From an uncultured Planctomycetaceae bacterium (lineage in GTDB: Bacteria > Planctomycetota > Planctomycetia > Isosphaerales > Isosphaeraceae), in the NCBI GenBank assembly GCA_963833985.1, contig CAWIAD010000002.1:2144001-2208000 (forward strand): a DNA stretch of 64,000 nucleotides. Direction: 5' to 3'. The notes under the pieces are model-generated. The model did no database searches and was not told the DNA's origin. It saw nothing but the letters and a program-made list of their open reading frames with translations. A program made the translations under genes and the position numbers. Positions 1 through 10,513 of this stretch are shown piece by piece. Numbering within the stretch: the first letter of the stretch is position 1; each line of letters begins with the position of its first letter.

Positions 1-836
1 ATGAAAGGGAAACGGTTGGAATAGGCCGCCCCACGAGCGATCAGAACCCAGCGGGCCACCGGGGTATTGACGACGGCATGTCGGCACACGGAGATCAACA
101 CAACACGGGAAACCCCAAGCGGTGAGGGCGCGTGACCCTCAACCGGACGCCCGCGAGGGACCGGCCGGGCTGCCTGGGGTGGCGGAGAGGCCCGTAGTAC
201 CGTCGACGCCGGGTAACTCCGGTCGAGGGAAGGGGCCTTGGTTCAAGGTCAACGCAACAAGCGGCAGACAGCCGGGAGATTGGCGTGAGTCTATCACCTC
301 CACTGAAGGTCGGGAAGTTGCAGACGGCGTTGCACACCAAAGCGAAGAACGCGCCCAACTATCGGTTCTACGTCCTGTACGACAAGATTTATCGACGTGA
401 CGTTCTGGGATTCGCCTACGAACGCTGCCGTGCCAACGGCGGCGCGCCGGGGATCGACGGCCAGAGTTTCGCCGACATCGAGGCGTCCGGGAAGGAACGA
501 TGGCTGGACGAACTGGCGGAACAACTTCGTAAGGAGACGTATCAACCCCAGGCGGTGCGGCGCGTGTACATCCCCAAAGGGGATGGCAAGCAAAGGCCGC
601 TGGGCATTCCTTGCATCAAGGATCGTGTGGTGCAGATGGCTGCGGTGCTGGTCTTGGAGCCGATCTTCGAGGCCGACCTGGAGCCGGAACAACACGCCTA
701 CCGCCCGGAGCGCAGCGCCCTGGACGCCGTCCGCGAAGTCGAACGGCTGCTCAAGACGGGGCACACCGAGGTGGTGGACGCGGACTTATCTGGATATTTC
801 GATAGCATACCCCATTCCGAGTTAATGAAATCGGCG

Positions 837-2633
837 TCACGGCGCATCAGCGACGGTCGCGTCCTGCGGCTGATCAAGATGTGGCTGGAAACACCGGTGG
901 AAGAAACCGACGGGAAGGGGCAGCGCCATCGAACGACCCGGAATAAAGACCAGGGGATGGGTACACCGCAAGGTGCACCGATCACGCCCCCAACAATGTT
1001 GCGAACTACGTTGTTGGGGGCCTTTCTCAAAAGGGGACGGACTGACCCGATACACGATGCGGACCTCCTGCTCGTCGATCTCGACCTTCTTCACCAAGGC
1101 CCGAACCACCTCCCGTCGCGTGGCCCAGTCCGGCTCTTGCAACCCTTGCGAGACGCGACGTGCGAACTCCTCCAACTGACCGATCACCAGTCGCAATTCC
1201 GCCTCTTGGGCGGCCTCGCCGATTCGTTGTCGATGCTCCTCCGCCAATCTCGAGAGGCGCGTCCTTGCCGCCGAGATCCGGGGCTCGAACTCCGATTTGT
1301 CGAGCAACCCGTCGCCGTAAGCATCGATTAATCGAGAAATCATCTTTTTCACATTATTTATCAATTTGCCGAGATGCTCCACCTCCTGATTCGGCCCGCC
1401 CTGGGCACCCTGCAGCCGCCGCTCGTACTCCTCCCGGACCCGCTCCGGCTCGGACAGGAGACCTCGTAAGTCCTCCCAGACGGCAGCGTCAAGGATATCG
1501 GTGCGGATCTGCTTGTTCCAGCAGAGGCGCTGCCCGCCGAAACGATAGGCGTCAGAGCCCGTGCAACGGTAGTACGCGTAGCGGACCCTACCCTTGCCCT
1601 CGAACGCGGCTCGGCTCGTCGGCTTGCCGTAGCAGCCGTAGCCGCAGCGCTTGCAGACGACCAGGCCCTGGAGCAGATATCGGCCACCGCCGGGCCGGTC
1701 GCGACGGCGTTGCCGGTTCTCTTCAAGCTGGGCCTGGACAGCCAGGAAGAGGTCTTCGCTCACCAGCCCGGGGACTTCAATGAAGATTTGATCTTCCGAG
1801 GATGTATCAACCCGTGAGACCGGTCGCCGGGAGTGTTCGGGGCGGCCTCGCTGCGGGCGGAGGCGTTGAGGTTTGAACTCACCTGAGCGCGTCTTGCCGA
1901 AGGCCGCGGTCCCCTTGTAGGCAGGGTTCTTGAGGATCAACCAGACCGTCGCGCGATCCCAGGCCGATTTCCCGGTCCGCGTCGGGATACTGTCGCGCCG
2001 GAGGCGTCGGCACACCTCGCCGATCGAGCACCGTTCCTGACCCACCCATTCGAAGATCTTCCGCACGACCCGGGACTCTTCAGCGAGGACCTGATAACGC
2101 GCCTCGCCACCTCCCTCGTGCTTGCCGATGTAACGGTAGCCGTACGGCGCGCCGCTGAGGACGTTGACCGAACCGCGGCGGGCGGCGTGTTGCTTGCCCC
2201 TGCGGCAACGCTCCATGATCTTGGCGCGCTCGTATTCCGCGATCATTCCCTGGACCTGAAGCAGCAGGTCGGCTTCCGGACTGCGGCCGACGGGGTTGCG
2301 CAAGAAGACGACCTCGACACCGCACCGGATAAGTTCCTCAAGGATCAAGACCTGATAGGCATACTTGCGTGAAAGTCGATCCGGATCGAGCATATAGAGG
2401 CGGTCGATGGCTCCAGCGGCGGCTTGGTCCCGAAGTCGCTCGAGTGCCGGTCGGGCCAGGATGTAACCGCTGACGCCGTCGTCCACGAAGTGCAGTTCGG
2501 GCTCGCATTCCAAGCCATCAGTGGCGATCCGCTGAGTGACCGCCTCGAGCTGGCTGGCGATCGTGTCCTCCTTCTCCTGCTGCTCCCCCGAAACCCGGGC
2601 GTAGAGCGCCACGCGGAGATTGTCCGTGATCAT
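837..2633 (-). CDS. Large serine recombinase (resolvase, recombinase, zinc-ribbon and coiled-coil domains)
   Basis: N-terminal YARVS catalytic motif, DRLSR, APYGY and LLQGLVVCKRCG...YYRC zinc ribbon. The stop codon lies outside the element. Confidence 0.95.
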   Translation of the reverse strand: MITDNLRVALYARVSGEQQEKEDTIASQLEAVTQRIATDGLECEPELHFVDDGVSGYILARPALERLRDQAAAGAIDRLYMLDPDRLSRKYAYQVLILEELIRCGVEVVFLRNPVGRSPEADLLLQVQGMIAEYERAKIMERCRRGKQHAARRGSVNVLSGAPYGYRYIGKHEGGGEARYQVLAEESRVVRKIFEWVGQERCSIGEVCRRLRRDSIPTRTGKSAWDRATVWLILKNPAYKGTAAFGKTRSGEFKPQRLRPQRGRPEHSRRPVSRVDTSSEDQIFIEVPGLVSEDLFLAVQAQLEENRQRRRDRPGGGRYLLQGLVVCKRCGYGCYGKPTSRAAFEGKGRVRYAYYRCTGSDAYRFGGQRLCWNKQIRTDILDAAVWEDLRGLLSEPERVREEYERRLQGAQGGPNQEVEHLGKLINNVKKMISRLIDAYGDGLLDKSEFEPRISAARTRLSRLAEEHRQRIGEAAQEAELRLVIGQLEEFARRVSQGLQEPDWATRREVVRALVKKVEIDEQEVRIVYRVSPSPFEKGPQQRSSQHCWGRDRCTLRCTHPLVFIPGRSMALPLPVGFFHRCFQPHLDQPQDATVADAP

Positions 2634-2998
2634 GGTTTGTCAAACCCCCCCGACCTTGGACTGGATAGTGTGGACCACAGTCGCGTGGTTGCGGCTGGGT
2701 CGCGGCCGATCCAGGCGCTGCGAAACGACCGGGATCAAGACCTGATATGCACGCGCGATCAATTGCTCCTGAAGCCGAGTGAACTCGAAGTGGCGGGTGA
2801 CAGGAGGACTGAACGTGGGCCTCCGTGGGGACGTGATCATGTCGACTCCTCCTCTCCGAGAGCGCGGCCGCCAGCCTGCCTTGGATCGGGATCGAGTCGG
2901 GGCTGCCATCCGTGCCCGTACTTCGGTCGAAGCCGCGATCTGGAAATGACAGAGTCAGGAATCAGGGACGATTTTGCAACATTGTTGGGGGCGTGATC
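980..2998 (-). mobile_element. Minimal large-serine-recombinase mobile element
   Basis: Absent from intron copy 2. Bounded by perfect 23-bp inverted repeats GATCACGCCCCCAACAATGTTGC (980-1002 and 2976-2998). GATC occurs at both junctions but once in the empty site (9511-9514). Confidence 0.92.
2640..2840 (-). CDS. Small hypothetical protein upstream of the recombinase (66 aa)
   Basis: ATG at 2840 preceded by GAGGAG; ends 6 nt before the recombinase start. Confidence 0.6.
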   Translation of the reverse strand: MITSPRRPTFSPPVTRHFEFTRLQEQLIARAYQVLIPVVSQRLDRPRPSRNHATVVHTIQSKVGGV

Positions 2999-3540
2999 TC
3001 ACCATTGTTGTCAAACATCTACATGCGACGATTTGTGAAGGGATGGAAGACTGGTGGACACGAGCGGCGTCTGGTCGCGCGAATCGTCAACTATGCGGAC
3101 GACTTCGTCATCTGCTGTCGCGGCACGGCCGAAGAGGCCATGACGGTGATGCGGAAGATGATGTCCAGGCTGAAGTTAACGGTGAACGAGACCAAGACGC
3201 GGCTGTGCCACCTGCCTGAGGAGACGTTCGACTTTCTGGGTTATACCCTCGGCCGGAACTACGACCGACGAACGGGCCGATCCTACATAGGGTCACGCCC
3301 ATCGCGGAAGAAGATCATTCGGCTGTGCAGCGAGATCAGTGCGATGACGACGCGCCAGACCACTGGACAGGACGTCGAGATGCAGATTGGTCGGATCAAT
3401 CGCAAGTTACGCGGTTGGTCCAACTATTTTCGCATCGGAACGGTGAGCCCAGCCTATCGCCAAGTCAACCACCACGTCCGCTACCGGGTACGTCAGTGGT
3501 TGTGTGCGAAGTTCAAGGTGCCGGGTCAGGGGCTCAGACG

Positions 3541-4825
3541 CAGGGCCAGCGCGCACTTTAGGCAGGCTTGGTAGGATGTAGGGGTTGCGCTTTGTGCCGT
3601 TTATTTGTATACCTCTCCGTGTGTGACATCGCTCCCGGCACACGGAGAATCCGCCATGGCAGATCATCGACGTGTCTCTTTGGATGAGGTTGTGGCCCAC
3701 TTTCAGCAATTGGAGGATCCACGCTCGACCATCAATCAGCGACATCCCCTGGTCAGTGTACTGGTTATCGCCTTGCTGGCGGTGCTCGCCGGTGCCGCCG
3801 GGCCAACCGCGATCGCGCGCTGGGCATCCCTGAAGCAGGAGCTTCTCCTTCAGGTGCTCGAGTTGCCCAACGGCGTGCCGCGCAAGGATGTCTTCCGCCG
3901 CGTCCTCATGATGCTGAAGCCGGCCGCCTTCCAGGCCTGCTTTGCCAGTTGGTTGCAGTCGTTGCGTACGGCGGCGATCGCGGCGACCGGCGTGGAGCAA
4001 CCCATCCTGGCTGTGGACGGCAAGACGGTGCGACGCAGCCACGACCACAAGAACGGTCTGGGTGCCCTGCATTCGGTCACCGTCTGGGCCAGCGAGTTCG
4101 GCCTCTCGCTGGGTCAGGTGGCCTGCGACGAAAAATCGAACGAAATCACGGCCATTCCCGAGCTTTTGAGGCTGGTGGACATCAAAGGGGCGATCATCAC
4201 CATCGACGCGATGGGCACTCAGAAGGCAATCGCAGCGGAGATCATCAAGGGCAAGGCCGACTTTGTGCTGGCGCTGAAGGGGAACCAAGAGACGCTGCAT
4301 CAGGCGGTCATCGATTACATCGACAAGCAACTCGATGGAGACATCTCCGATGCGCAAGAACATGTAACGAATGAGCGTGGACATGGGCGTGAGGAGATGC
4401 GAACCTATCTCCAGCTCCCGGCCCCCAAGGAGCTGCCCGGCTTCGATCTGTGGGCGGGACTGAAGTCGATCGGGGTGGTGACGTCGCGCTGCCTTCGGGA
4501 CGGGAAGGAATCTGTCGAAGTCCGCTACTACATCAGCAGTCTGGCCCTGGATGTGAAAACCTTCGCCCGAGCCGTTCGTGGGCACTGGGGTATCGAGAAC
4601 AGCTGTCACTGGACGCTGGACATGAGCTTTCGCGAGGACGAATCGCGGCTCCGCGAGCGGCGGTTGAGAGAGAATTTCGCGTGGCTGAACCGCTTCGCGT
4701 TGTCGCTCTGCAAACAGCATCCTGGACGCCAAAGCGTCGTGATGAAGCGCCGGAGTTGCGGTTGGAGCGATACCTTCTTGATGGAAGTCGTTACTGGATC
4801 TACATGTTAGTGTGCGCTGGCCCTG
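3541..4825 (+). mobile_element. ISAs1-family insertion sequence (1285 bp)
   Basis: 17-bp terminal inverted repeats CAGGGCCAGCGC(G/A)CACT (16/17 match) and a 10-bp target duplication GGCTCAGACG at 3531-3540 and 4826-4835. Absent from intron copy 2. Confidence 0.95.
3656..4810 (+). CDS. ISAs1-family DDE transposase
   Basis: Motifs DPR, AVDGKT, KSNEITAIPELL, TIDAMGTQ, HWGIEN and FRED; GGAG upstream of ATG 3656. Confidence 0.95.
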   Translation: MADHRRVSLDEVVAHFQQLEDPRSTINQRHPLVSVLVIALLAVLAGAAGPTAIARWASLKQELLLQVLELPNGVPRKDVFRRVLMMLKPAAFQACFASWLQSLRTAAIAATGVEQPILAVDGKTVRRSHDHKNGLGALHSVTVWASEFGLSLGQVACDEKSNEITAIPELLRLVDIKGAIITIDAMGTQKAIAAEIIKGKADFVLALKGNQETLHQAVIDYIDKQLDGDISDAQEHVTNERGHGREEMRTYLQLPAPKELPGFDLWAGLKSIGVVTSRCLRDGKESVEVRYYISSLALDVKTFARAVRGHWGIENSCHWTLDMSFREDESRLRERRLRENFAWLNRFALSLCKQHPGRQSVVMKRRSCGWSDTFLMEVVTGSTC

Positions 4826-5087
4826 GGCTCAGACGCTACCCTGACAGATACCTGCACCAGGAGTTGCATCTTTACCAGCTGCAACGAACCTAGCCGCGAT
4901 GGTTTCGTGAGCGAACGTGTGAACTCAACCGATGAGACAAGCCTTGTCCGAAAGCTGGATGCGGGAAAACCGCCCGTCCAGTTTGATGAGCGGGGTGTGG
5001 AAACGAGGCCCAGCCGAGCCATCGACTCGAGCCCACCGCGCCACACCTCGACTCTACATCGTGTCACTTCTTCGATCTGATGGAACC

Positions 5088-5295
5088 TGGAATGGCACGA
5101 TGAGAATCGTACCCCACGAGAATGGAATGGCACGATTGGAATCGTACCCCACGAGAATGGAAAGGCACGATTGGAATCGTACCCCACGAGAATGGGAAGG
5201 CACGATTGGAATCGTACCCCACGAGAATGGGAAGGCACGATTGGAATCGTACCCCACGAGAATGGGAAGGCACGATTGGAATCGTACCCCACGAG
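5088..5295. repeat. Six tandem 35-bp REP-like units (GGCACGATTGGAATCGTACCCCACGAG plus 8-bp linker)
   Basis: Core starts at 5094, 5129, 5164, 5199, 5234 and 5269; internal palindrome ACGAT-TGGA-ATCGT. Confidence 0.95.
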
Positions 5296-5472: not shown

Positions 5473-7551
5473 TCAGCCCCGCTCGCCAGTCTGTTGCCGT
5501 TTCTTATCCTTTCGGCGTGCTGTCGTCCGCCCCGGGCGGTAGCCTGTGCTCGGCAGCCCGCGCTCGCCGGCCGGCTCGCCCTTCGCAGGATTTGCCATCG
5601 AGTGATAATGGTCGCCTTCGGCCGTCTCGTTCGCCTGACGCCTTCGTGCCTCGATCGCTGCCCTGGGCGGCTGAGCGGGGATCAGGCAATCGCAGCCGCT
5701 GCCGATCAGGTCCGCTCGGCCCGCCTTGAGCAGGGCGTCCCGCACCAGGAAGTAGTTCTCGGGCTTGAAGAACTGCATGAGCGCGCGCTGCATCTTGCGG
5801 TCCCGCAAGCCTCTGGCGATGTGTACCGGTACCCCGCTGAACGGATCCAGTCCGGTGTAGTACATGCAGGTGGCGATATCGAAGGGAGCGGGGATGAAGT
5901 CTTGCACCTGATCGGGCTTGTATCCGTTCCGTTTCAGGAAGACGGCCAGGTCGATCATGGCGCTCAGGTCGCTGCCGGGATGCGAGGCGATGTAGTAAGG
6001 AACCAGGAACTGCTTCTTGCCTGCCTTGCGGCTCGCCGTCTGAAAGGCTTCGGCAAAGCCGTCGTAATCGGCGGCGTTCGGCTTCTTCATGAGCCGCAGC
6101 ACGTTGCTGTCGGTGTGCTCGGGAGCGACCTTGAGATGGCCGCCGACGTGGTGGCGGGCGAGCTCGTCCATGTACTCGGGCGATTTCTGCGCCAGGTCCA
6201 TGCGGATGCCCGAGGCGACGAGGACCTTGTCGATGCCGGGAACCTGGCGGCTCTCGCGCATCAGCTCCACGAGCGGGCCGTGGTCGGTGCCCAGCAGCTT
6301 GCAGATCGTGGGATGAACGCACGACAGCCGCTTGCACTTCGCCTCCACCTCCGGCCGCGTGCAGCGCATCTCGTACATGTTGGCCGTCGGCCCGCCCAGG
6401 TCGGAGACGACACCCGAGAAGCTCTTGTCGGCCGCCATCGTTCTCAGTTCCGCCAGGACCGACTCTTGCGACCGCGACTGGATGATCCGCCCCTGGTGGG
6501 CCGTGATCGAGCAGAAGGTGCAGCCGCCGAAGCAGCCGCGCATGATCGTCACCGAGTCTTTCACCACCTCGTAGGCCGGGATCTTCCGGCCCTTGTACAG
6601 CGGATGCGGCCTGCGCGTGTAGGGCAGGCCGTAGACCCTGTCCATGTCCTCCTGGCTGATCGGCAAGGCGGGCGGATTGCAGACCACCGCCTGGCGGTCG
6701 TGGAACTGCACGAGCGTTCGCGCGTTCAGCGGGTTGGTCTCCTGGTGGATGACCTTCGTTGCCCGGGCGAACGCCAGCTTGTCGGCCTTGACCTCCTGGA
6801 ACGAAGGCAGCACCAGGGCGTTCAGCGGAGGCGCCTCGCTGGCTCCCAGGGCATAGGCGACGCCGCGCATGTCCCGCAGGTCCTTGACGGTCTCTCCGGC
6901 CTCGAGCCGGCGCGCAATCTCGACAATCTGGTGCTCGCCCATGCCGAAGACCACCAGGTCCGCCTTCGCGTCGAGCAAAATAGAGCGGCGCACCGTGTCG
7001 CTCCAGTAGTCATAATGGGCCAGCCTGCGCAGAGAAGCCTCCACGCCGCCGGCGATGACCGGCACGCCAGGAAAGGCCTCGCGGGCGCGCTGGCAGTAGG
7101 ACAGCGTCGCCCGATCGGGGCGCAGGCCAATTTGCCCGTCGGGGCTGTATGCGTCGTCGTTGCGCACCTTCTTGTTCGCGGTGTAATGGTTGATCATGCT
7201 GTCCATGTTGCCGGCGCTGATGCCGAAGAACAGCCGGGGCCGGCCGAACTGCCGCCAGGGCGCGGCGCTGCGCCAGTCGGGCTGGCTGAGGATCGCAACG
7301 CGAAACCCGGCCGCCTCGAGCACCCGTCCCAGAATGCCCATCGCGAACGCGGGATGATCGACGTAGGCGTCTCCAGTCACGAAGACGACGTCGACCTCGT
7401 TCCAGCCCCGCGCTTCCATCTCCGCACGCGACGCCGGCAAGTGTGGCAGCGTCAGCGGAACAACCGGCAGCACTGGAAGTTGCGTCGGTGCCGCGTTGGG
7501 GTCGCTTGGCCGCGTGGTGGCGCAGGTGGTGTTCGTGAAATCAGGCGTCAT
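5473..7551 (-). CDS. ygiQ: YgiQ/UPF0313 family radical SAM protein
   Basis: [19 protein letters not shown] and the [11 protein letters not shown]xxxCxxC motif. Confidence 0.92.
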
Positions 7552-8148: not shown

Positions 8149-8258
8149 TCGACCAGGTTCGGACGCACGATTGACGGTTTTCCCCGGTGGCTAAGCAGGT
8201 TCGCAATAATTCTTTGACAGGCATTCATCGGGTTGATGCGATCCTGGATGACCGGAAG

Positions 8259-8284
8259 GCCGCTCTTTGTGGGACACGATTCCG
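8259..8284 (+). repeat. Left half of REP hairpin forming the intron 5' exon (GGCCGCTCTTTGTGGGACACGATTCCG)
   Basis: Joined to 10279 onward it restores GACACGAT-TCCG-ATCGTGTC. The flank is an imperfect inverted copy of CCCCACGAGGAGAGCGGCC at the far end of the array. Confidence 0.85.
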
Positions 8285-10278
8285 GTGCGCCGTGGAAAGG
8301 TGTTGGTCTTCAGTGGGTGTAACTCCCACCCGGCAACTGGGTCGCTCCAGCCGGTAGCTATCGGAGCGGCGGTGGAGGAGACGAAACCGTCGGAGCCTTC
8401 GAGACAGATGTGTCGCTTGGCGATGCAGCGAACCGACAGGCCGTAACGCGAGTGAACGTTGAGCAGGCCTCGAAAAGTCCAATGTGGTCGCCGACCTTGC
8501 TGGAATATGGGGAAGGCCGCCGTCGCTGGGGATGAAAGGGAAACGGTTGGAATAGGCCGCCCCACGAGCGATCAGAACCCAGCGGGCCACCGGGGTATTG
8601 ACGACGGCATGTCGGCACACGGAGATCAACACAACACGGGAAACCCCAAGCGGTGAGGGCGCGTGACCCTCAACCGGACGCCCGCGAGGGACCGGCCGGG
8701 CTGCCTGGGGTGGCGGAGAGGCCCGTAGTACCGTCGACGCCGGGTAACTCCGGTCGAGGGAAGGGGCCTTGGTTCAAGGTCAACGCAACAAGCGGCAGAC
8801 AGCCGGGAGATTGGCGTGAGTCTATCACCTCCACTGAAGGTCGGGAAGTTGCAGACGGCGTTGCACACCAAAGCGAAGAACGCGCCCAACTATCGGTTCT
8901 ACGTCCTGTACGACAAGATTTATCGACGTGACGTTCTGGGATTCGCCTACGAACGCTGCCGTGCCAACGGCGGCGCGCCGGGGATCGACGGCCAGAGTTT
9001 CGCCGACATCGAGGCGTCCGGGAAGGAACGATGGCTGGACGAACTGGCGGAACAACTTCGTAAGGAGACGTATCAACCCCAGGCGGTGCGGCGCGTGTAC
9101 ATCCCCAAAGGGGACGGCAAGCAAAGGCCGCTGGGCATTCCTTGCATCAAGGATCGTGTGGTGCAGATGGCTGCGGTGCTGGTCTTGGAGCCGATCTTCG
9201 AGGCCGACCTGGAGCCGGAACAACACGCCTACCGCCCGGAGCGCAGCGCCCTGGACGCCGTCCGCGAAGTCGAACGGCTGCTCAAGACGGGGCACACCGA
9301 GGTGGTGGACGCGGACTTATCTGGATATTTCGATAGCATACCCCATTCCGAGTTAATGAAATCGGCGTCACGGCGCATCAGCGACGGTCGCGTCCTGCGG
9401 CTGATCAAGATGTGGCTGGAAACACCGGTGGAAGAAACCGACGGGAAGGGGCAGCGCCATCGAACGACCCGGAATAAAGACCAGGGGATGGGTACACCGC
9501 AAGGTGCACCGATCTCACCATTGTTGTCAAGCATCTACATGCGACGATTTGTGAAGGGATGGAAGACTGGTGGACACGAGCGGCGTCTGGTCGCGCGAAT
9601 CGTCAACTATGCGGACGACTTCGTCATCTGCTGTCGCGGCACGGCCGAAGAGGCCATGACGGTGATGCGGAAGATGATGTCCAGGCTGAAGTTAACGGTG
9701 AACGAGACCAAGACGCGGCTGTGCCACCTGCCTGAGGAGACGTTCGACTTTCTGGGTTATACCCACGGCCGGAACTACGACCGACGAACGGGCCGATCCT
9801 ACATAGGGTCACGCCCATCGCGGAAGAAGATCATTCGGCTGTGCAGCGAGATCAGTGCGATGACGACGCGCCAGACCACTGGACAGGACGTCGAGATGCA
9901 GATTGGTCGGATCAATCGCAAGTTACGCGGTTGGTCCAACTATTTTCGCATCGGAACGGTGAGCCCAGCCTATCGCCAAGTCAACCACCACGTCCGCTAC
10001 CGGGTACGTCAGTGGTTGTGTGCGAAGTTCAAGGTGCCGGGTCAGGGGCTCAGACGCTACCCTGACAGATACCTGCACCAGGAGTTGCATCTTTACCAGC
10101 TGCAACGAACCTAGCCGCGATGGTTTCGTGAGCGAACGTGTGAACTCAACCGATGAGACAAGCCTTGTCCGAAAGCTGGATGCGGGAAAACCGCCCGTCC
10201 AGTTTGATGAGCGGGGTGTGGAAACGAGGCCCAGCCGAGCCATCGACTCGAGCCCACCGCGCCACACCTCGACTCTAC
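8285..10278 (+). mobile_element. Group II intron copy 2, full length (1994 nt)
   Basis: 5' GTGCG at 8285; 34-nt domain V with AGC triad at 10172-10205; 3' ...ACTCTAC; RT ORF in the domain IV position. Confidence 0.95.
8816..10114 (+). CDS. ltrA: Group II intron reverse transcriptase/maturase without endonuclease domain
   Basis: RT0-7 motifs (GAPGIDG, RPLGIP, DADLSGYFD, PQG, YADD, FLG) and X domain; no HNH domain; GTG start. Confidence 0.96.
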   Translation: MSLSPPLKVGKLQTALHTKAKNAPNYRFYVLYDKIYRRDVLGFAYERCRANGGAPGIDGQSFADIEASGKERWLDELAEQLRKETYQPQAVRRVYIPKGDGKQRPLGIPCIKDRVVQMAAVLVLEPIFEADLEPEQHAYRPERSALDAVREVERLLKTGHTEVVDADLSGYFDSIPHSELMKSASRRISDGRVLRLIKMWLETPVEETDGKGQRHRTTRNKDQGMGTPQGAPISPLLSSIYMRRFVKGWKTGGHERRLVARIVNYADDFVICCRGTAEEAMTVMRKMMSRLKLTVNETKTRLCHLPEETFDFLGYTHGRNYDRRTGRSYIGSRPSRKKIIRLCSEISAMTTRQTTGQDVEMQIGRINRKLRGWSNYFRIGTVSPAYRQVNHHVRYRVRQWLCAKFKVPGQGLRRYPDRYLHQELHLYQLQRT

Positions 10279-10436
10279 ATCGTGTCACTTCTTCGAGCTT
10301 GTCGTGGGACACGACACCAATCGTGTCACTTCTTCGATCTGATGGACCAGGAATGGCACGATTGGAATCGTACCCCACGAGAATGGAATGGCACGATTGG
10401 AATCGTACCCCACGAGGAGAGCGGCCAGGCAGGGCT
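10279..10436. repeat. REP/REPIN-like cluster: split REP right half, second forward REP variant, two inverted 35-bp units
   Basis: ATCGTGTCACTTCTTCGA at 10279 and 10320; units at 10355 and 10390; tail GAGAGCGGCCAGGCAGGGCT shared with the 5296 region. Confidence 0.9.
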
Positions 10437-10513
10437 ATCAAGTGGGGCCCTCTCCGAGAGCTGGGCGGGCGAAACGACAATTCTCGTCATCACTGGATAT
10501 TGATAATAATCGA

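Follow-up and report, generated by a model that had tools for sequence, protein, structure and literature searches.

The available text of a 2015 review assigns group II introns three target specificities: homing sites, terminators and attC sites (PMC4424553). Repetitive extragenic palindromes (REPs) are hit by the insertion sequences (ISs) IS1397, ISPpu9, ISPpu10 and ISPa11, which share the niche considered here but rely on DNA transposases rather than RNA-guided retrohoming; in its accessible part, the same source gives 2/9 copies of a P. putida KT2440 group II intron as REP-associated, a weak association at 22% (PMC1525189). Here we describe a group II intron of an uncultured Planctomycetaceae bacterium (family Isosphaeraceae; assembly GCA_963833985.1), two copies of which lie in the window, a 64,000-nucleotide stretch of contig CAWIAD010000002.1 (positions 2,144,001 to 2,208,000, forward strand). 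We consider it about three-quarters probable that this is an endonuclease-less, class-F-like intron that retrohomes through IIB-type pairing into a REP family of its host, and that the planctomycete clade around it retunes one guide, exon-binding site 1 (EBS1), between repeat families.

The class F/IIF introns of group g3, Ni.ha.I1 and D.a.I1, have in common with this intron the absence of an endonuclease, a length of ~2 kb, a 5-nt domain V loop and the possession of EBS1 and EBS2 (PMC3552965, PMC3753933). Their loci are given as non-coding or transposase sequence, and the accessible text states no repeat target (PMC3552965, PMC3753933). In the work of Nagy et al., splicing did not need the pairing of EBS2 with intron-binding site 2 (IBS2), for which the authors suggested a homing role, as far as the available sections go (PMC3753933). 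We found no account of a group II intron homing into REPs or terminal inverted repeats (TIRs) in a literature search whose scope excluded most subscription papers, figures and supplements.

Insertion sites in the host genome

The better-preserved window copy (8285-10278, + strand) begins GTGCG, ends AC and matches the Rfam models RF02003 (8311-8451) and RF00029 (10171-10253). As a preliminary description of the window had proposed, its excision restores GTGGGACACGAT-TCCG^ATCGTGTCAC, a GTGG-headed 8-bp palindrome cut at the boundary between loop and 3' arm. The 5' exon (8269-8284, +) is the left half of a GGAC-type REP, comprising the GTGG tag, IBS2 (GGAC, 8272-8275) and IBS1 (ATTCCG, 8279-8284), and the 3' exon (10279-10288, +) is the right arm, with the A at 10279 as IBS3. 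The other window copy has the same 3' exon, from 5058 onward, again as first described.

Across the host genome (10.16 Mb in two contigs, 65% GC) we located 13 intron 5' ends and 14 3' ends, one of the latter being a short unrelated remnant; 12 of the 13 loci have both junctions on one contig, and one is probably split across two contig starts. Where they are intact, identity among the copies is 99.2-100% (about 95% for one decayed copy), and such near-identical dispersed copies imply recent mobility of the intron. Twelve of the 13 loci share the same REP base, including the decayed copy with its poorly pairing exon, and the sole non-REP locus is C2:1011493. All 13 5' exons carry GGAC at -13..-10. 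The preliminary expectation that every 5' exon would end in ACGATTCC(A/G) inside the REP was right about the place and too strict about the letters: the exact ending occurs in 6/13 exons and ATTCC(A/G) in 10/13.

The palindrome is dispersed and not merely found beside the intron. A profile search returned 158 empty REPs in 67 clusters, against 0 in the reversed-genome control, and 152/158 lie outside crude gene calls. The proposed specialisation on a high-copy intergenic repeat is supported, with 12/13 copies in it. The repeats show a GT[AG]G tag, an 8-bp stem (criterion 6-9 bp), high copy number, extragenic location and inverted doublets, and such doublets also occur in other planctomycete genomes. 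The family is present in 5/121 genomes of the bacterial family, and a wider pattern in 12/401 genomes of the class; in one genome with 66 related REPs (G274, 93% complete) the intron protein had no match. Occupancy follows subtype: 11 GGAC-type REPs are occupied and 43 empty, while 0/115 of the others are occupied (Fisher p = 1.7e-6, 12 two-junction loci). Among those never occupied are the GGGT-type REPs, the commonest, and 12 GGGC-type perfect hairpins.

The copies could instead have spread passively inside a mobile, REPIN-like REP composite, or be the product of segmental duplication or an assembly error. The REP is often embedded in a composite element of ~300 bp with roughly 30 matches across the genome at 81-98% identity (81-94% for its left arm, 8190-8268, +); 8/13 intron copies have at least one flank from it, one pair agreeing at 95/98 upstream and 135/135 downstream positions, and both contigs start inside an intron copy. 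Even in this pair, though, the exons are not alike right at the junction, most flanks reach 85-95% identity where the introns exceed 99%, and the flanks of five copies bear no relation to the composite outside the REP core. The two window loci, for which the preliminary description had named a single segmental duplication as a danger, share <100 bp of flank per side (82/88 and 94/98 identical) against >99.6% identity in their intron parts. Because divergence at occupied loci is greater in the flanks than in the introns, the junctions differ and five loci lack composite flanks, the copies are separate insertions. Passive spread is already contradicted by this flank comparison, and we regard it as extremely unlikely.

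The composite itself (window 8190-10440, about 300 bp in its empty form) has long imperfect inverted arms, and its left arm contains GACAGGCATTC, found too in a REP flanking a RAYT gene elsewhere in the genome (L005). As a separate observation, genes downstream of the insertions are antisense in 10/12 loci (p = 0.04, crude gene calls).

Guide sequences

From GTDB genomes and metagenome contigs we gathered 147 distinct 5' junctions, the intron's own and those of its relatives, leaving out those with starts unlike the parser pattern, the closest one (L269, a tandem copy) among them. Junctions with enough sequence (120) entered the tree and 110 entered the statistics, after removal of duplicates, one tandem site and two of the three own copies. 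The hexamer UGGAAU at 8501-8506 (+) covaries with exon positions -1..-6 and was identified as EBS1, with 553/660 Watson-Crick pairs over the 110 junctions (260/318 in the clade defined below and 293/342 outside it; permutation maxima 171 and 141). With one site per distinct EBS1 (61 sequences), 306/366 positions form Watson-Crick pairs, against a permuted mean of 113.5 (sd 9.1, max 151). The EBS2 core, GUCC at 8477-8480 (+), reads GGAC at -13..-10: GUCC stands opposite GAC in 22/26 junctions and GACC opposite GTC in 20/22, with 181/200 pairs formed versus 158 ± 3.6 after permutation. EBS3, the U at 8598 (+), pairs with 3' exon position +1 (43/53 junctions versus 19.5 ± 3.1 permuted). These permutations overstate significance because related introns are not independent, but the covariation is large. 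No second intron with the EBS1 UGGAAU occurs among the 147 junctions.

The preliminary description had named UGGAAU as EBS1 and placed it in a loop at 8548-8553 (and 17-22 in the other copy); the sequence stands, but its location is corrected to 8501-8506. The side hairpin at 8544-8559 (+) that holds the rejected candidate stays the same in spite of differing targets and is absent from several distant relatives. Among the 68 junctions that keep it, 0 exons end in ATTCCR, and TGGAAT at 8548-8553 yields 98/408 Watson-Crick pairs versus 350/408 for 8501-8506; it is not a guide. EBS2 and EBS3, both overlooked at first, account for the choice of REP subtype: only GGAC-type REPs are occupied because the GUCC of EBS2 reads GGAC at -13..-10.

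By sequence, EBS1 matches ATTCC(A/G) at -6..-1 and EBS2 matches GGAC at -13..-10, leaving a 3-nt spacer between them, and EBS3 matches +1. We hypothesize that the ribonucleoprotein would reverse-splice into DNA left single-stranded by the replication fork, where the reverse transcriptase (RT) would copy the intron, as for RmInt1 and RmInt2. Beyond the guides, clade targets carry G at -14 (41/55) and -15 (39/55) and a purine at -9 (52/55), and EBS2 offers A opposite -14/-15. The unpaired G at -14/-15 might reflect protein recognition of a G-run, or simply the nature of the targets; for RmInt2, the accessible text has the protein reading -16/-15 (PMC4615759).

Relatives and their repeat targets

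In a guide-masked nucleotide tree, 62/120 junctions form a clade (support 0.87), and every one of the 50 sites with GG[GT]G[AT]C or GGAC/GGTC at the same register falls within it; the labels are taken from the exon, and four of the motif's letters follow from the conserved EBS2. Within the clade EBS2 stays on GGAC/GGTC, and 30 distinct EBS1 hexamers track differing dispersed repeats. Two changes separate the EBS1 of the window intron from AGGUAU, with which close relatives target GGGGACACCATACCT. Target repeats of relatives are multi-copy in their genomes: 90, 42, 21, 6 and 3 copies of GGGACGCMGCTAGT (5/5 genomes), 34, 23, 19, 8 and 7 of GGGACRTMACTRAT, 39, 10, 10, 9 and 6 of GGGGTCAGACYKWKT, 31, 17, 12, 7 and 3 of AAGGACAKGCAHYGC, and 27, 5, 3, 3 and 1 of GGGGACAYCATACMY, versus 0-1 per genome for reversed-pattern controls; the patterns were taken from the targets and the counts include occupied sites. 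We propose that the clade holds EBS2 on a GG(A/T)C core common to REPs and to the TIR repeats of Y1 transposases, and that changes in EBS1 would move its introns between repeat families.

A simpler account would dispense with specialisation: the intron would enter any guide-matching site, REPs would be the commonest harmless match and selection would purge the rest. Judged by guide pairing alone, the empty sites that equal the used ones comprise 28 in REPs and 53 intergenic ones outside REPs, yet 11/12 insertions are in REPs (p = 2e-4), and guide pairing alone is an incomplete account of the preference. Once G-14 and a purine at -9 are added to the guides, REPs make up 20/27 of the empty sites and the preference is not significant (p = 0.31), which suits the simpler account, as does the one insertion outside a REP (C2:1011493). 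At that site EBS1 pairs perfectly and EBS2 matches over 7 nt, with only 2/8 arm pairs, in keeping with recognition through the guides. The roughly 30 EBS1 sequences of the clade speak for a lasting association instead: they mostly match repeat families, and chance would not repeat so. Selection on EBS variants is itself a route to specialisation; therefore, this alternative, which we consider unlikely, mainly denies a lasting link.

A DNA hairpin might also be needed, in the way that IIC introns need one at terminators and attC sites. Ten of 12 reconstructed own sites are predicted to fold with at least six pairs across the junction, although at the non-REP site these pairs amount to a weak fold (-4.0 kcal/mol) and do not come from REP arms. 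IIC introns likewise hit dispersed intergenic motifs at low host cost, but in the accessible accounts they use a 3-4-nt IBS1, no EBS2 and a hairpin upstream of IBS1, whereas the window intron has a 6-nt EBS1 and EBS2 (PMC4424553, PMC7923331, PMC7306698). Its hairpin straddles the site, and one of at least six pairs in that place is predicted in only 6/19 relatives. A 6-nt EBS1 with a covarying EBS2 sets it apart from IIC introns (PMC7923331), a class that the preliminary description had already excluded. The stem takes in IBS2 and some of IBS1 and, once folded, would therefore compete with the guides for pairing, and the 12 GGGC-type REPs, perfect hairpins lacking GGAC, are never occupied. Because the cross-site hairpin is not conserved, recognition looks sequence-based rather than IIC-like. 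Relatives also use non-palindromic repeats in this register, so the hairpin is probably incidental, a property of the REP and not a signal. We judge a hairpin requirement very improbable.

Outside the clade, distant relatives occupy AT-rich or unrelated sites. Five introns there (L016, L124, L151, L234 and L235) hit TIR repeats with EBS1 directly on the GGGACA or GTCAGT core, which suggests convergent targeting; three of them (L016, L151, L234) use a shifted register, and insertion into the same TIR repeats at other registers suggests repeated origin.

Other features of the relatives may be noted. A/U-rich guides go with AT-rich islands of GC-rich genomes in L232, L265-L268, L049, L050 and L052, and L236, L237, L269, L133 and L149 are head-to-tail tandem introns. 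Short relatives of 713-779 nt (L016, L024, L053, L230, L258) apparently lack an open reading frame (ORF), and some of these lie in TIR repeats. A 66%-identical intron (L440, genome G244) sits in another repeat, its upstream flank duplicated just downstream.

Link to Y1 transposases

The TIR consensus around TIRYT transposases is given as GGGG[AT][CG]A[CG] in the available text, and targets of the relatives fit it or miss it by one base (PMC3733652, PMC6006769): the GGGGACAC and GGGGTCAG families fit, and those of GGGGACAT, GGGGACGC and GGTGTCAG differ from it by one base. When the clade targets were compared with 102 Y1 loci (one mismatch in 14), 20/47 had a match there, versus 6 for reversed and 3-10 for random controls; outside the clade the figure is 7/56, versus 5 (reversed) and 2-6 (random). 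Y1 genes flanked by inverted-repeat targets were found for the GGTGTCAGTTCATTTT and GGGGACATAACTAAT families. In this genome, arrays of GGTGTCAGTTCATTTT, the target of L227, flank two Y1 genes, and a Y1 gene of genome G083 (L368) lies between the arms of a 20-bp inverted repeat in which the exact L240 target occurs; no Y1 gene flanked by GGGGACACCATACCT repeats was found. NCBIfam gave sub-threshold RAYT matches on partial proteins, and the repeats, on which the assignment depends, suggest that the Y1 transposases may belong to subclass 2.1.

The occupied repeat has in common with the GTAG/GTGG REPs of RAYT systems the GT[AG]G tag, the 8-bp stem and inverted doublets, as these are given in the accessible text; it differs in that no transposase flanked by it was found and it was not matched to a named family (PMC3733652, PMC6006769). 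By structure it is a REP, with a putative link to a transposase. The genome does contain a RAYT gene (L005) that has a related REP, GGGGACAGGCATTCCTGCCTGTC. The genome (G000) holds at least four other Y1 repeat systems (L002, L004, L005, L006, L007), with TIR arrays or with GTAG or GGGG REPs, none of which is hit by the window intron.

Several points weigh against retrohoming into REPs with retuning across the clade. At the own sites, two occupied REPs pair with EBS1 at only 4/6 positions and the decayed copy at 2/6, and EBS3 is mismatched in 3/13 loci. Within the clade, 12/62 junctions are without the motif (11 other, 1 tandem), and the protein tree gives weak support at the clade base (ultrafast bootstrap, UFBoot, 61-70). 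Two further target patterns were found in only 2/5 and 3/5 genomes, and the target motif in G020 is not high-copy because 4/5 of its copies are occupied. The derivation of the repeat patterns from the targets and the kinship of the junctions, both given above with their counts, belong here as well. A looser, two-mismatch test of Y1 flanks (37/57 versus 27 in the control) is not discriminating. The RAYT gene flanked by the exact REP that the preliminary description had recommended seeking did not appear: 0/7 Y1 loci in this genome have the own REP within 10 kb, and the repeat's transposase was found neither in 18 Y1 loci of G274, G244 and G001 nor near the REP loci screened. GC skew is too weak for the replication strand of the insertions to be called.

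A wider proposal is tentative, and at present we lean against it: a fourth targeting strategy, in which the lineage would parasitise RAYT/TIRYT repeat systems. EBS2 and the protein would read a G-rich GG(A/T)C core, EBS1 would follow whichever family is expanding, and the Y1 transposase would renew the landing sites, possibly exposing single-stranded DNA. 

On the favoured reading, by contrast, the mechanism is homing, but the homing site is a self-renewing family of short repeats. Homing into repeats offers an answer to how an intron can escape target saturation cheaply for its host, and it brings a second class of parasite, besides IS elements, into REP/RAYT evolution.

Structure and class of the intron

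The ORF-intact copy shows the group II hallmarks: GUGYG...AY ends, a domain V with catalytic triad and a domain VI with a bulged A. Domain V (10172-10205, +) is 34 nt long with an AGC triad, as the preliminary description had it, and carries a 5-nt GAAAA loop, a IIE/IIF feature according to the accessible text of PMC3753933. Domain IV holds the ORF for a 432-aa RT/maturase (8816-10114, +; YADD 9608-9619) that scores 356 bits against TIGR04416 (cut-off 300) and contains the Pfam domains RVT_1 and GIIM only; the absence of an endonuclease domain noted earlier is thus upheld. This ORF is intact in 2/13 intron loci, the 8285-10278 copy among them. The protein is 50% identical to that of Ni.ha.I1 and 36% to those of B.th.I3 (g2) and Rh.js.I1 (g1). 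The protein tree places it together with Ni.ha.I1 and the g3 protein of A. caldus (UFBoot 97), apart from the g1/g2 references, in a sampling without g4, Ge.ur.I1, So.us.I2 and Pe.th.I2 references and with other outgroups that carry no verified class label. The intron appears class-F-like, that is, class F in a wide sense and g3-like.

In domain I, alpha (UCGCUC, 8342-8347, +) is complementary to its putative partner alpha' (GAGCGA, 8566-8571). Both are almost invariant across the 30 relatives compared, too constant to covary, and GAGCGA sits in a terminal loop in simpler relatives, a place that may correspond to the tip of the DId3 stem-loop at which class F introns have alpha'. Folding domain I as a single sequence was uninformative (z = -0.77), and a scan for promoters and terminators gave no signal exceeding shuffles. 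Among 20 sequencing runs screened, the best contained 0.18 of the words and none reached half; four runs yielded fragments of relatives only, with no spliced or empty junction seen, and are silent on expression.

Compared with all other copies examined, the intact ORF (8816-10114) has two private amino acid changes, N to S after an ISPLLS motif and L to H in a GYTxG motif; therefore, the 8285-10278 copy may not be an active donor. Downstream lie a second, empty GGAC-type REP with a degenerate loop (10304-10327, +) and two inverted REPs of the never-occupied GGGT type (10355-10413, -). Between the two introns, on the minus strand, a 692-aa ORF (5473-7551) has a CxxxCxxC motif and resembles a YgiQ-type radical SAM protein.

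Second copy and nested elements

The other window copy (1-5057, +) has its 5' end 247 bases before the window and is interrupted twice. An ISAs1-family IS (3541-4825, +) has a 10-bp target duplication and 14-bp inverted ends, and a 2013-bp large-serine-recombinase element (983-2995, -) lies in the RT gene, with the matching empty site in the intact copy near 9513-9514. Its 3' exon is followed by six inverted GGGT-type REPs (5058-5292, + for exon and array together; REPs 5094-5292, minus strand). The neighbouring repeats on this side and at 10355-10413 are the same family on the other strand, as previously described.

The serine-recombinase element, or its end, is present in 11/13 intron loci at a single AT dinucleotide of the RT gene: seven copies in one orientation, two in the opposite one, one at a contig end and one remnant. 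Two genomic copies lie elsewhere, and the inverted ends measure about 20 bp. Homologues that are 78-83% identical occupy the same intron site in G032 (two), G010 and G080; because other genomes' introns are occupied at the same site, the element targets the intron and is a site-specific parasite of group II introns. A literature search on recombinase elements that target group II introns found nothing. Under the wider proposal of a lineage parasitising RAYT/TIRYT systems, this element on the intron's RT gene would make a three-tier nest.

The seven same-orientation composites of intron and recombinase element have a common substitution, while the other two and both ORF-intact copies are without it, which fits a composite spreading in trans. 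The decayed intron copy also carries this base; therefore, the base may be ancestral, and precise excision of the recombinase element is a possible alternative. In three genomes, introns L118, L121, L122 and L237 have a ~1.9-kb insertion at one place in domain I (intron position about 92).

Comparison with known systems

The nearest precedents in the accessible literature are RmInt2, which occupies the inverted repeats of an IS, and the TeI families. RmInt2 of Sinorhizobium meliloti, a class D intron in ISRm17 inverted repeats, resembles the window intron in lacking an endonuclease and pairing through EBS1/2/3, and also in its long IBS1-IBS2 spacer, multi-copy inverted-repeat target and head-to-tail copies (PMC4615759). 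It differs in class and in that its target is the end of an autonomous IS rather than a short non-autonomous repeat, a single target family being described in the available text (PMC4615759). In Thermosynechococcus TeI3/TeI4, as in this clade, EBS divergence drives proliferation and ORF-defective copies are mobilised in trans, and one family inserts into an IS200-family element (PMC2882425). These introns are CL/IIB1 with an endonuclease, however, and their divergence, as given in the accessible text, took place inside one genome with no tie to REPs or TIRs (PMC2882425).

The mechanism is standard IIB-type retrohoming, and what is new is the REP/TIR target class. The locus gives a direct test of the homing role proposed for EBS2 in IIF introns in the available part of PMC3753933, and about 30 natural EBS1/target pairs on one scaffold should be useful for deriving retargeting rules for a compact endonuclease-less intron. 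To the described systems it adds a corrected guide map, a test of REP subtypes, evidence against a need for a hairpin, and a link to TIRs across the clade.

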